In this document: positions 4,350 to 48,119 of the stretch, piece after piece
Numbering within the stretch: position 1 is the first letter of the stretch
Layout: each line of letters starts with the position of its first letter
DNA from: a phage
Reading direction: 5' to 3' (one strand)
Sequence record: PZ154896.1
Length of the DNA stretch: 64,000 nucleotides
Translations under genes and position numbers: made by a program
The notes under the pieces: model-generated
What the model saw: the letters and a program-made list of their open reading frames with translations, nothing else
Databases searched by the model: none
Told to the model about the DNA's origin: nothing

Positions 4350-4409
4350 TTCTATTTCCTCATTTGTTGGTAGAGTTATAGTATCACAACTCCACCATGT
4401 TGTAAACCA

Positions 4410-6475: not shown

Positions 6476-6532
6476 TTAGATTTCCTCAATTATCCATAGG
6501 AGCATTATACTCTGCTCCTGAGAGTTTGTAAA

Positions 6533-34497: not shown

Positions 34498-34573
34498 GTT
34501 AATTTCCTCAATTGATTAATGTTTTTGTAATCCATGAGAGCATTATACTCTGCTCTCAAGAGTTTGTACAATT

Positions 34574-43718: not shown

Positions 43719-43972
43719 TAAGTTGTACCGTTTTCAGTGATTTCACGGAAGATACCATAGATAGGCATTTCATCGCCTAGTTTTTCGTAAACGTAAACCA
43801 CTTCGGTGTAGCATAAAAATTCGGTCCAGTTTTTCTGTACAACAACTAAATCAGGATTAAACAGAACATCTTCAAACTCATCGATGTTTGAATCAGTAGT
43901 TACGTTTTTAATGATTTGACGTTTCATAATATTCTCCTCTTGTTTTGATAGGTCTATAGTATCATAGACCAT
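43700..43972 (-). CDS. hypothetical protein (90 aa)
   Basis: ORF track; own promoter upstream. Confidence 0.45.
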
Positions 43973-43984
43973 AGTTGTTGTACA

Positions 43985-44509
43985 TCATTTTAGCAAAATA
44001 AAATCAACTTGTTCTGCCAATGAACGTCTAAACATTAATTGACAACTTCCGAGGATGAAATCAGGTGCTTCATAGACCGCGATGTAGTATCCTTTAGCTT
44101 TCAAGAGTTCAACATCCACCTGGTCGTCAAACCAAGCGTAAACCGCGTCAACACTTTCAAATCCAAAATAGAACCCTTGGGCCCAATCTTCGCTCAATTC
44201 AAATGTGTGATCAATTCTATAGTATCTTAAGATATTTTGTTCAAGGAGTTTATCTTCATTTACTGTAGGACGATTAGGGACATTATAGTTGTCGCCGTGA
44301 TGGTAGAAGTTACCTGAGAGTATTCCATGCTTATCAAGGAACTCCCATGTTTCTTCAGAGTTGTCGGTGCCTGACCAACCGTATGGTGAGCGAGGTTCTT
44401 TATTCCAAGAGGTTTCCCAAATTCTGACGGCTTTACCGTCTTCGATAGCAATTCCTGGTAATGATTCACGTTGAGTACAAAAACTACGTTCTACGCGGTA
44501 AACTAACAT
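43985..44509 (-). CDS. hypothetical protein (174 aa from internal ATG)
   Basis: Track ORF 43985..44590; ATG at 44507-44509 has GAGGAG RBS (MLVYRVERSF...). Confidence 0.45.
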   Translation of the reverse strand: MLVYRVERSFCTQRESLPGIAIEDGKAVRIWETSWNKEPRSPYGWSGTDNSEETWEFLDKHGILSGNFYHHGDNYNVPNRPTVNEDKLLEQNILRYYRIDHTFELSEDWAQGFYFGFESVDAVYAWFDDQVDVELLKAKGYYIAVYEAPDFILGSCQLMFRRSLAEQVDFILLK

Positions 44510-44568
44510 ATTATTCTCCTCTGGTTGGTATGGATATAATATCAAAACCAGAGGAGAAGTAAACAACT

Positions 44569-44988
44569 TTATGCAAAAGATGCTGGACAATATTTTTTGA
44601 TTTGGAACTCAGGAACTACCATGAACTGTCCAGCGAAAACGATGTTATAAAGCTTAACACCATCTTCTACCCATTGGTCCGAAATAAAACCAGCAACTTG
44701 ATTCGTTGTCCATGGAGACCCGTCAGTTGCAGAAGCAATAGTAAATTCATGGTCTTTTACAACTAAAACAGACCTGCATAGTTTCCATTTGAACGCTTTT
44801 TCTTCTGGTTCAATGAATTGGCTTTTAACATAACCAATGTTACCATCGGCGTCACGAACTTTAACTTGGTTACGTCCAAAAACCGGATCACTCACATAAA
44901 GAACTTCAACCAACTTCCCGGCAACTTTAGAGCGAGAAGCAACAGATACATATACGTAATCACCTGTAGAGAGATTTACAATATTCAT
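44569..44988 (-). CDS. paralogue A of a tandem three-gene family (139 aa)
   Basis: Shares N-terminal ...V(S/A)(V/P)ASRSK(V/A)AG(K/R)LVEV and C-terminal GFISDQWVEDG.KLYNIVF.G.F.VV blocks with ORFs B and C. Confidence 0.55.
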   Translation of the reverse strand: MNIVNLSTGDYVYVSVASRSKVAGKLVEVLYVSDPVFGRNQVKVRDADGNIGYVKSQFIEPEEKAFKWKLCRSVLVVKDHEFTIASATDGSPWTTNQVAGFISDQWVEDGVKLYNIVFAGQFMVVPEFQIKKYCPASFA

Positions 44989-44997
44989 AATAATTCC

Positions 44998-45495
44998 TTA
45001 AGCTTTAAGAGGAGACACATAGCGAGTGATTTCAGATTCTTTAACAACTCGGAAGTCACCTAAGAATACGATATTGTATAACTTTTCGCCATCTTCAACC
45101 CATTGGTCACTAATGAAGCCACACATGATATCAGTTTTGCTTGGATAACCGTATTCGTCGATGTAATCAAATTCTTTATCGGTTATAAATTCAACACCTT
45201 TACACAAGGCCCATTTGAACTGTACATTAGGCTCAACGATATCGCTTGAAGCAAAGTGTGCAGGTGCAACTTCTTCGCTTGAAGCAAATTGGACTCGTAT
45301 ATGTTTTTCCAGGAATTTAGGACTTACGTAAGCATACTGGGCATCTTGTCCGCCAAAACTGGGCATGATTCGAACTTTAACTTCTTTAACACGTCCCATG
45401 CCGTTAGTACGAAGCCCTGCTACTTCAACCAGACGACCTGCAGCTTTAGAACGAGAAGCAGGAGATACACGAAGGATTTCACCAATAGTAATCAT
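44998..45495 (-). CDS. paralogue B of tandem family (165 aa from internal ATG)
   Basis: Track ORF 44998..45558 trimmed to ATG 45493-45495 (MITIGEILRVSPASRSKAAGRLVEV...); promoter lies inside the track extension. Confidence 0.55.
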   Translation of the reverse strand: MITIGEILRVSPASRSKAAGRLVEVAGLRTNGMGRVKEVKVRIMPSFGGQDAQYAYVSPKFLEKHIRVQFASSEEVAPAHFASSDIVEPNVQFKWALCKGVEFITDKEFDYIDEYGYPSKTDIMCGFISDQWVEDGEKLYNIVFLGDFRVVKESEITRYVSPLKA

Positions 45496-45557
45496 ATTTT
45501 TTCTCTCTTTGTTTAAGTTGAATTCATTATACTCCATCCATCCTTGGATGTACAACA

Positions 45558-46052
45558 TTAATTTAGAATATTAACTACTGCACTACGTGGAACCACACTA
45601 AAATCACCGGCATGAACAACGTTCAGAAGTTCAACCCCATCTTCAATCCACTGGTCAGTTACCCAGCCACTTACCGGTCCAGCGAATGGTCGTCGAATTG
45701 AAACAGCTTTACACAACAAATCAGTAGGCTCAATAGGCTTAATCAGAGTACCGTACATACAAGCGATATCCATATCAAAGTGGAGACCATCTTTAACAGG
45801 TGCTTCTTCAATCAACAGTTCAAAGTCGGTGCTTGGAATGGCGGTAGTAGAAATTATACCGTATGAATTTTTAATTTCTAAGAATAACCAAGGGCCTTCA
45901 GCTTGTTTGATAAAGTTAACAATAGTGAAACTATTACCTTGAGTGGCACCTAAAATTTCACAAAACTTTTCGTAAGCTCGCACTGAAGCACCGTACCAGT
46001 TGATTTGTTTTTCGTCTTTCAGGATGTAAGTAGCCGTAGTATTGATATTCAT
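45558..46052 (-). CDS. paralogue C of tandem family (164 aa)
   Basis: C-terminal GWVTDQWIEDGVELLNVVHAGDFSVV block homologous to A and B. Confidence 0.55.
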   Translation of the reverse strand: MNINTTATYILKDEKQINWYGASVRAYEKFCEILGATQGNSFTIVNFIKQAEGPWLFLEIKNSYGIISTTAIPSTDFELLIEEAPVKDGLHFDMDIACMYGTLIKPIEPTDLLCKAVSIRRPFAGPVSGWVTDQWIEDGVELLNVVHAGDFSVVPRSAVVNILN

Positions 46053-46118
46053 AATGTTTTTCCTGTTTGGTTAAGATAGAAAGATTATACTCCAACCGTC
46101 CTTGGTTGTAAACTGGTT

Positions 46119-46796
46119 TTATCGCTGTTTTACACTTAACGGGTCAGGATTCTCAGGGACATCTTCAAGGCCAAGCGCATAACGCTGAGCATATTTTAAC
46201 ATCAAAATATCTTTAGCACAATCATGAATACTATCATGGGCAACGAATCCTTTTAGCGTACCCATCGGTAATGGACACATACTTAATCCTCGTGTCAACG
46301 AGTAAGCTTCGATTGCAGTACGAATATCGCGTTGAGCCCAGAATTTAACCGGTTCTAATTTATCAGTATCAATATCTGGTTCAAGAACACCTTCATCACG
46401 ATAGAGGTCACGAATCAAATCGACCAAGATCGGGAAGTCAAAGCTCATACCACGGCACCACATCTGTGATTTCCATTGGTCAACTTTATTAGCTCGGCAA
46501 TAATCTAAAAAGATTTTAATGCCTTCAAGCGTAGTGACATCGTCTTCAGACGGAGCCAAGTTTTTACGTGCTTCAGCCGATTGTTCTTTCCACCATTTCA
46601 TAGTGGATTTAGCGAAAACTCGCTTCCCTTTCTGAGAAGCTAAATTAAATTTAATTCGCTTACCTCGTTGAACAAGTTCTTCAAATGATTCAACAACTTC
46701 AGGGTCGGAATTATATGCAATAACCGCAAGGTCAATAACAGCCGCTTTTGATGTATTGCCGAATGTTTCAAAATCTATAATAACATCAGTGCTCAT
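46119..46796 (-). CDS. dexA: exonuclease A (DEDD 3'-5' exonuclease)
   Basis: 225 aa; N-terminal DFETFG exonuclease motif; T4 position next to dda. Confidence 0.75.
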   Translation of the reverse strand: MSTDVIIDFETFGNTSKAAVIDLAVIAYNSDPEVVESFEELVQRGKRIKFNLASQKGKRVFAKSTMKWWKEQSAEARKNLAPSEDDVTTLEGIKIFLDYCRANKVDQWKSQMWCRGMSFDFPILVDLIRDLYRDEGVLEPDIDTDKLEPVKFWAQRDIRTAIEAYSLTRGLSMCPLPMGTLKGFVAHDSIHDCAKDILMLKYAQRYALGLEDVPENPDPLSVKQR

Positions 46797-46805
46797 AATT
46801 TTCTC

Positions 46806-48119
46806 TCAAATAAAATGGACGTCAAAACGACCACGAGTTGTGCCGACATACAATAACTGTTTAGCTAATTCTGAATCGGCATAATGGATGCACGGTGTAT
46901 AAACAAAGGCCGTGTCAACAGACATACCCTGGGCCTTATGGAAGGTTGATACTGGTAGTGCCTTCACCTTAGTGAACATACGTTTAGCATCCCAGAATTC
47001 GCTCCATGGAGCTTTACCACCTTTATTCCAAAATTTGTATGTTTCTGCGGTCTTAGCCAAAAACAAATTGAATTTATAAAGCTCTTCTTCAGAAGAAATA
47101 ACCTTTATATCTTCGCGGATGTATTCTTCATCATCCCCATATGTTTCTACTGTAAGATTCCAGTATCGTATCATATATTCGCCTGAAACACCACGTGCTT
47201 TAACGAATGTAGACGTTTCTACAGCATCTCGAATACGAACGAATTGACCGTTATTGAAAAGCATTTCGGTAATATTTTTACCATCTAGCTTATATGTCTT
47301 AGTAAACGGCTCTTGTAGAACAATGACTTCGTCTTTAATAAATGGTTTTTCTGTTTCAAGAAGTTTTCGGCGAATAATTGAATTTAACTTGTCCACCGAC
47401 TTATTTGTGAATGCCATCATTCGATTTTCGAAAAGGTCTTCAGGAGTTTTAACGACGTTAAAATAGTTCATCATATACGATTTAAGGTCTGTATATCCAT
47501 GAACGCCGTGCCCATCAACTACTTTATCGTAGATCCATTTGCCGTTACGAATATCAGTCGCAACATCAATAATTGGTGCATTGCTACGTTTAACTTCTGT
47601 AAGGTTGCATTGCACGAAGTCTTTGTGAGTGAAGAAAGGACTTAGATACGCAGTTGATTCGCCTGGGTCTACCGGACGAATCTGGCATCGGTCGCCGATT
47701 CCAATTACTGTACACCATTTAGGGATACTAGCTAACATTATTTTAAACAGAGAACGGTCGCACATTGACGCTTCATCAAATAACAGTACACGGCACAAGG
47801 CTAAGTCGGGAACCTTTTTCTGTTCAAACAATACGTTTTCTTCGTATGTAGTTGGGTTGATTTTAAGAATGCTATGAATAGTCGATGCTTCTTGACCCGC
47901 AAGTTTACTTAGAACCTTTTTAGCAGCATGTGTAGGGGCTGCTAAAATAATACCTGATTCTCCAGAAGAAATAAGGGCTTCAACGATGAATCTAGTAAGG
48001 GTTGTTTTACCTGTACCAGCAGGCCCATTAATAGTTACGTGATGTTTCTTTTCTTTAATAGCGGTCATAACAACGTTGAAGGCGTTTTTCTGGCCTTCAG
48101 TCAAATCATCAAATGTCAT
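46806..48119 (-). CDS. dda: Dda DNA helicase (SF1B)
   Basis: 437 aa; Walker A GPAGTGKTT; T4 Dda length. Confidence 0.9.
   Translation of the reverse strand: MTFDDLTEGQKNAFNVVMTAIKEKKHHVTINGPAGTGKTTLTRFIVEALISSGESGIILAAPTHAAKKVLSKLAGQEASTIHSILKINPTTYEENVLFEQKKVPDLALCRVLLFDEASMCDRSLFKIMLASIPKWCTVIGIGDRCQIRPVDPGESTAYLSPFFTHKDFVQCNLTEVKRSNAPIIDVATDIRNGKWIYDKVVDGHGVHGYTDLKSYMMNYFNVVKTPEDLFENRMMAFTNKSVDKLNSIIRRKLLETEKPFIKDEVIVLQEPFTKTYKLDGKNITEMLFNNGQFVRIRDAVETSTFVKARGVSGEYMIRYWNLTVETYGDDEEYIREDIKVISSEEELYKFNLFLAKTAETYKFWNKGGKAPWSEFWDAKRMFTKVKALPVSTFHKAQGMSVDTAFVYTPCIHYADSELAKQLLYVGTTRGRFDVHFI

Follow-up and report, generated by a model that had tools for sequence, protein, structure and literature searches.

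MotB-family genes beside dexA

The 64,000-nucleotide stretch of phage DNA analysed here (sequence record PZ154896.1; the whole stretch is referred to below as the window) carries at positions 44569-46052, beside dexA, three adjacent minus-strand open reading frames of 139, 165 and 164 amino acids (aa), exactly as claimed in a preliminary description of the sequence. These reading frames, designated A, B and C, almost certainly belong, judging from sequence comparison, to the known MotB / MotB-like / MotB.1 family of early phage proteins. They are listed in the order of transcription.

45558-46052, minus strand: gene C, 164 aa, T4 MotB.1 orthologue
44998-45495, minus strand: gene B, 165 aa, T4 MotB orthologue
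44569-44988, minus strand: gene A, 139 aa, second MotB copy of the RB69ORF010c type

Against Pfam PF17613 (motB, "modifier of transcription"), for which the gathering threshold is 25 bits, B scored 128.1 bits over profile positions 2-160 of 162 and A scored 77.3 bits (E 1.6e-21); C reached 36.8 bits through its C-terminal half only (profile 82-153). Among the PHROG families, A and B fall into phrog_1671, "MotB-like transcriptional regulator" (A: E 1e-50), and C into phrog_2333 (E 2.4e-81). As revealed by BLASTP, B is 45% identical to T4 MotB over 167 aa (E 5e-43) and A, the more distant copy, 38%; C is 39% identical to T4 MotB.1 over 134 aa (E 3e-28) and matches the MotB.1 N-terminal domain, to which A and B showed no match. 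In the GenBank record of phage RB69 (AY303349) these genes and the next one are labelled motB.1 (together with a 29-aa ORF012c), motB, "RB69ORF010c similar to motB" and motB.2. An alignment of 102 homologues was published by Patterson-West et al. 2021 (PMC7827196), who described a common C-terminal domain combined with differing N-terminal domains and reported two motB genes and one motB.1 in RB69. The architecture of the locus, having been published in 2021 and annotated in databases, is thus known and not new. According to the preliminary description, its proposal would fall if the genes turned out to be a known conserved family, and PF17613, the RB69 annotation and the 2021 study identify them as such. 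Homologues are conserved in hundreds, and the family is near-universal among T4-like coliphages and not sporadic. The finding itself, an annotated and published family found again, matters little.

The three proteins are true paralogues located in a plastic early region, as had been proposed. Smith-Waterman scores, each compared with 1000 shuffles, gave z = 40.9 for A-B, 16.6 for A-C and 15.0 for B-C, and BLASTP aligned A-B at 41% over 159 aa (E 1.5e-29), A-C at 62% over 29 aa (E 1.3e-11) and B-C at 35% over 55 aa (E 3.8e-10). Given z-scores of 15-41, an artefactual family assignment is very unlikely. The blocks said to be common to all three at both ends were recovered at the C-terminus of each protein and at the N-terminus of A and B (A-B z = 14.2 for the N-terminal parts alone); the N-terminal part of C is unrelated to those of A (z = 0.5) and B (z = -1.2). 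Aligned profile to profile (hhalign), the C and A/B families matched with a probability of 98.2% (E 4.7e-14), in the C-terminal region only. A and B are hence full-length paralogues, and C has in common with them only a C-terminal domain of about 55 aa. The array is a two-copy duplication (A and B) accompanied by a domain-swapped relative (C), of which T4 already has the counterpart, motB.1, and not the tandem triplication that had been described. B is closer to T4 MotB (45%) than A is to either B (41%) or T4 MotB (38%), which argues that the A/B duplication is old or that A diverged faster. Further copies of the shared domain besides those in A, B and C were not found by tblastn in the whole window.

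Structure prediction, suggested as a check in the preliminary description, gave for B a barrel, a disordered linker and a second barrel, and for C a confident N-terminal barrel, leaving the C-terminal domain of C poorly modelled (see below). AlphaFold2 modelled residues 1-62 of B as an all-β N-terminal domain (pLDDT about 80), followed by a disordered linker (65-89, pLDDT below 50; nucleotides about 45226-45300) and an all-β C-terminal domain (90-165, pLDDT 84-93; nucleotides 45001-45228). B orthologues of 151-165 aa differ in length solely in the linker, to which the 11-14 aa differences among Mosigvirus alleles map as well; the linker here contains the imperfect tandem repeat FASSEEVAPAH/FASSDIVEPNV. 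According to the alignment, A has both domains of B and a linker about 24 residues shorter. The N-terminal domain of C (residues 1-85) was modelled with pLDDT 83-89, and the linker behind it poorly. As predicted by these models, all three proteins would consist of two β-barrels joined by a flexible linker, the N-terminal barrel being KOW-like in A and B and of an unrelated SH3/LSm-like type in C; for the MotB.1 subfamily a five-stranded bent β-sheet is expected there. This agrees with published predictions of a KOW-like N-terminal domain in MotB (PMC7827196) and an SH3/LSm-like one in MotB.1 (PMC12152347). The N-terminal KOW-like barrel with the motif SxxSRSKAAGKLVEV, by which the MotB family is recognised, is present. 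The common C-terminal domain spans roughly 55-75 aa and is highly conserved; its core (FKW...DQWVEDGVKLYN.VF.G) is present in A, B and C and follows the motif W-V/I-T/S-D-Q-W-V/I-E-D-G-x-K/E-L-Y/L-N-I/V-V. A PDB sequence search with B returned nothing meaningful (best E 0.8), which indicates that no structure has been solved for the MotB family.

C-terminal domains of the MotB.1 type, 76-88% identical to that of C, are also found joined to other N-terminal parts, of at least two kinds; the proteins concerned come from other T4-like phages and metagenomes and measure about 177-183 aa or about 244-252 aa. In phage ime09, a 179-aa protein combines a C-terminal domain of this type with still another kind of N-terminal domain.

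The genome of the window is assigned, from its nucleotide matches, to Mosigvirus (RB69-like Tevenvirinae). The best megablast matches of positions 44400-46200 were Escherichia phages DCP548 and ST0 (97%), followed by HX01, NBG1 and RB69, and 297 phage records match this DNA at 80% identity or more. The surrounding genes are, in the order of transcription:

46806-48119, minus strand: dda, first in transcription order
46119-46796, minus strand: dexA, directly upstream of C; matches the Pfam Rv2179c-like exonuclease and a PHROG exonuclease family
43985-44509, minus strand: gene X, 174 aa, T4 MotB.2 homologue, next after A
Beyond X, minus strand: successively cef, goF, 39.2, an ORF005c-like gene and the large topoisomerase subunit

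The location of the motB family between cef and dexA is syntenic with T4, RB69, HX01, NBG1 and ime09. The order of transcription is dexA, motB.1, motB, motB-like, motB.2, cef here and dexA, motB.2, motB.1, motB, cef in T4; motB.2 adjoins dexA in T4 and ime09 but cef in the window, so that the order was rearranged between genera. X is 34% identical to T4 MotB.2 (E 9e-17, BLASTP) and was rejected as a fourth paralogue (z about 1 against A, B and C).

An extended, 186-aa version of B was as well rejected, since its ATG overlaps the stop codon of C, it includes the promoter, and in alignment T4 MotB corresponds to the short start. The annotated length of B varies across records (456, 465, 498, 528, 549 and 561 nucleotides), and the longer versions, which run through B's own promoter, are probably wrong. 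Automated naming is likewise inconsistent, ranging over "hypothetical", "transcriptional regulator" and "MotB-like". The HX01 record additionally lists a 22-aa "modifier of transcription" fragment.

Early promoters and the hairpin before gene X

Three sigma-70-like promoter sites were located along the array, all on the minus strand.

46112-46084, minus strand: C promoter, T4-type early (sigma-70), GTTTACA-17-TATAAT, 11/12 consensus, 31 nucleotides 5' of the C ATG
45554-45526, minus strand: early promoter of the B-A pair, TGTACA-17-TATAAT, 10/12 consensus
44563-44536, minus strand: X promoter, TTTACT-16-TATTAT, 9/12 consensus

The promoters of C and B are among about 20 T4-type early promoters, (G)TTTAC(A)-17-TAnnAT, found on the minus strand of the window. 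The C promoter is kept in seven Mosigvirus relatives; the B promoter, the spacer of which resembles that of the C promoter, is kept in relatives as well, with TATAGT as the -10 hexamer in three. The claim that each gene of the array has its own early promoter was borne out for C and B and failed for A, which starts 9 nucleotides after the B stop codon (TAAGGAATTATTATG) with a Shine-Dalgarno sequence. This junction is invariant in the seven relatives, and neither a consensus scan nor comparison with the relatives revealed a promoter in it. The short junction without a promoter points to expression of A from the transcript of B. The third promoter lies downstream of the A stop codon (44569-44571) and upstream of the X start (44509) and hence serves X; it is probably this element that the preliminary description counted as the third promoter with a hairpin.

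A spacer hairpin had also been ascribed to each promoter, and folding did not uphold this: the dyad at the C promoter folds at chance level (z = -0.28), that at the B promoter is marginal (z = -2.15), and significance was reached only at the X promoter.

44514-44558, minus strand: X hairpin, 13-bp stem TTCTCCTCTGGTT / AACCAGAGGAGAA, -20.6 kcal/mol, z = -3.95, conserved in relatives

The 5' arm of the X hairpin contains the promoter spacer and its loop the -10 hexamer, and the 3' arm AACCAGAGGAGAA includes the X Shine-Dalgarno sequence (GAGGAG). Such an arrangement would sequester the ribosome-binding site in transcripts reading through from upstream and leave it free in those initiated at the X promoter, a layout resembling the translational control of the T4 e/soc/49 type.

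Many early promoters of the phage carry dyads of 6-9 bp bracketing the -10 hexamer, e.g., GGTACAGGT...ACCTGTACC at 304-277 (minus strand), and further minus-strand dyad promoters lie at 34542-34570, 6504-6532, 4378-4406 and 43956-43984. Dyads of this kind appear to be a general trait of the early promoters of this phage and not specific to the motB array.

Selection, proposed function and alternatives

Selection was estimated over whole genes by the Nei-Gojobori method in comparison with the seven Mosigvirus relatives, as ratios of nonsynonymous (dN) to synonymous (dS) substitution.

A, minus strand, 44569-44988: dN/dS 0.08-0.25
B, minus strand, 44998-45495: dN/dS 0.14-0.28
C, minus strand, 45558-46052: dN/dS 0.04-0.37
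dexA, minus strand, 46119-46796: dN/dS 0.11 or less
dda, minus strand, 46806-48119: dN/dS 0.06 or less
goF, minus strand, beyond X: dN/dS 0.14-0.45

A, B and C (0.04-0.37) are under purifying selection. The alignment and dN/dS comparison, which the preliminary description had proposed for its fast-evolving genes, thus confirmed similarity far beyond chance and gave no whole-gene positive selection. Rapid change was upheld insofar as dN of the three genes (0.01-0.19; A up to 0.07, B up to 0.19) exceeds the values of dexA and dda (0.006 or less) about 3- to 10-fold and the alleles are mosaic. Values of dS were raised as well, up to 0.46-0.68 versus about 0.03-0.17 in the flanking genes, and the joint elevation of dN and dS points to allele exchange and not to simple rapid drift. 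The database proteins P0148, P0149 and P0151 are chimeric, their A-type C-terminal domain following an N-terminal domain of B or T4 type, the CCU7 allele of B has a T4-like N-terminal segment, and the Tequatrovirus ime09 has a counterpart of A with 90.6% identity, versus only about 70% for the neighbouring genes. In alignments the C-terminal core is nearly invariant across genera.

We consider it probable, at about 85%, that the locus represents the T4 motB region in its Mosigvirus form, encoding MotB.1 (C), MotB (B) and a second MotB (A) with MotB-like action. B is the positional and sequence orthologue of T4 MotB, sharing its KOW-like domain, linker and C-terminal domain, its location between cef and dexA and its early promoter, and A has the same architecture; the differences are the presence of two copies here versus one in T4, the shorter linker of A and the lack of a promoter of its own. 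T4 MotB.1 (PHROG 2333; "Category 2" of Patterson-West 2021) is 39% identical to C over the N-terminal domain and into the beginning of the C-terminal one, is predicted to have an SH3/LSm-like N-terminal barrel and is, as C, encoded immediately upstream of motB in the order of transcription. C differs in being 164 aa long, its C-terminal domain complete and its linker enlarged by 20 aa, versus 119 aa in the T4 reference and 143 aa in other T4 records. RB69 (AY303349) has the same gene order at about 92% DNA identity, and the array is another allele of that locus; in RB69, motB.1 is split in the record but intact here, and MotB is 151 aa long, with a shorter linker.

The proposal that the genes belong to a host-interaction family agrees with what is known of T4 MotB, a DNA-binding protein of host takeover that perturbs H-NS (PMC6070864, PMC7827196). 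MotB is toxic in E. coli; it binds DNA without specificity, H-NS and StpA co-purify with it, and its effect on burst is 2-fold (PMC6070864). At proV it dominates the footprint of H-NS and alters it, and 75 host genes are up-regulated, about a third of them under H-NS control (PMC7827196). According to later work cited in reviews (PMC12449154, PMC13096335), MotB is a nucleoid-associated protein of the phage, wrapping and compacting DNA and lifting the silencing by H-NS. C, B and A would be transcribed immediately after infection by the sigma-70 RNA polymerase of the host; one early promoter would serve C and another B, with A riding on the B transcript. By orthology with T4 MotB, B, and probably A, would bind DNA independently of its sequence, coat and compact host and phage DNA and change the placement of H-NS, modestly raising phage yield. 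Transfer of this mechanism of early DNA coating and nucleoid/H-NS remodelling from T4 MotB appears fairly probable for B, evenly balanced for A and rather doubtful for C. Since the conserved C-terminal domain is held in common, C probably acts on the same substrate as A and B through a different N-terminal adaptor. The proposed outcome, early relief or rearrangement of the binding of H-NS-family proteins, is the same as for T7 gp5.5, T4 Arn and LUZ24 gp4 (PMC12449154). MotB is related to none of these in sequence or mechanism: H-NS/MvaT is bound directly by gp5.5 and gp4, and Arn mimics DNA, whereas MotB binds DNA itself.

Several observations weigh against the reading as a motB region with MotB-like action. 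Deletion of motB.1 in T4 gave no laboratory phenotype (PMC12152347), and B and A are only 45% and 38% identical to T4 MotB, at which transfer of function is no more than plausible. The C-terminal domain of C (residues about 109-164, nucleotides 45561-45728) was poorly modelled (pLDDT 50-59), too uncertainly for comparison with that of B. For the C-terminal domain of the family, the published HHpred call is an OB-fold; the DSSP assignment of this domain in the B model, with five strands and a short helix before the last, looks more SH3-like than OB.

An alternative reading regards the array as a fast-evolving anti-defence or host-range cassette, the paralogues of which diversify under positive selection against host immunity proteins. 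It would account for the location in a plastic early region, for dN values several times those of dexA and dda, for the chimeric alleles and for an A gene far closer to its ime09 copy than the flanking genes are, and H-NS silencing is arguably a defence against foreign DNA. Nevertheless, such a cassette seems improbable, given that whole-gene dN/dS stayed at 0.04-0.37 in all comparisons, the C-terminal core hardly varies between genera, T4-like coliphages carry the family almost without exception and no dedicated defence system is known as its target; beyond the H-NS literature, evidence for an anti-defence role was neither found nor the aim of a search. Comparably improbable is the action of some or all of the proteins, C especially, on RNA or on the transcription and translation machinery instead of DNA. 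NusG/Spt5, ribosomal proteins, EF-P and Hfq typically contain barrels of the KOW or LSm/SH3-like kind, the original name of motB is "modifier of transcription", and Kim et al. 2025 class the N-terminal domains of MotB.1, GoF and Frd.2 together as LSm-like (PMC12152347). An RNA-directed role is suggested only by fold class. Against it, the T4 transcriptome was essentially unchanged on motB knockdown and MotB binds DNA directly (PMC6070864, PMC7827196), and MotB.1 had no effect in an RNA-stability reporter, though in a truncated 119-aa form (PMC12152347). The probability that the common blocks are chance similarity, which the preliminary description had named as fatal to its proposal, or that the reading frames are not genes, is negligible in view of shuffle z-scores of 15-41, the hhalign E-value of 4.7e-14, hundreds of conserved homologues, dN/dS well below 1 and conserved promoters and Shine-Dalgarno sequences in place.

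Within the reading as a motB region, a tentative and rather unlikely extension is that the MotB C-terminal domain may be a portable module for DNA coating (or self-association) carried on varied N-terminal adaptor barrels, which may include KOW (MotB), LSm-like (MotB.1) and at least two further types (proteins of about 180 and about 250 aa). If so, the array would represent a combinatorial toolkit of phage "chromatin" with members co-assembling on DNA, and full-length MotB.1 would be a second nucleoid-associated protein with a phenotype of its own.

Single-base insertions in the T4 and RB69 motB.1 records

The MotB.1 of the T4 reference (119 aa; region 2143-2651 of NC_000866.4) ends in GGWVTDQWIGRWR followed by a stop, and the next frame reads on as LEDGVELLNVVHAGEYSVVPRSAVVAILN followed by two stops, matching the C-terminus of C. 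The cause is one additional G (GATTGGAAGATGG), which falls within the conserved C-terminal domain (compare window positions 45561-45680). A 74-nucleotide probe across the extra G matched at 100% only AF158101.6 and NC_000866.4; at the same site it aligned with a one-base gap to 13 other T4 records (T4T, KJ477684-6, MT984581, OZ209023, OL964735 and others) and to RB55 and RB59. MT984581 encodes an intact MotB.1 of 143 aa, most MotB.1 homologues in the protein collection have 143-145 or 164-169 aa, and the versions of the motif in IMG/VR comprised 13 intact and 0 frameshifted ones. In RB69 (AY303349, 3028-3524), motB.1 (132 aa) and ORF012c (29 aa) are one 164-aa gene interrupted by two single-base insertions, CCGTTTCGC and GACGGTTGTTG, which are absent from the window, NBG1 and HX01 and were seen only in RB69 among the records compared. 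This split explains the "29-aa Category 3 peptide" of Patterson-West 2021.

Programmed frameshifting in motB.1 was considered, since the T4 and RB69 references both seemed broken close to one motif, and rejected, as the insertions of T4 and RB69 are at different positions and RB69 has two; further grounds were the confinement of the T4 insertion to AF158101/NC_000866, with 13 T4 records lacking it, and the IMG/VR count of 0 versus 13. In Kim et al. 2025 (PMC12152347) motB.1 was synthesised after the reference sequence and its product given as 13.8 kDa; this protein is the truncated 119-aa form, without the last about 28 residues of the C-terminal domain. The sole functional study of MotB.1 hence used a truncated reading frame, and its negative results may need to be repeated with the 143-aa protein.
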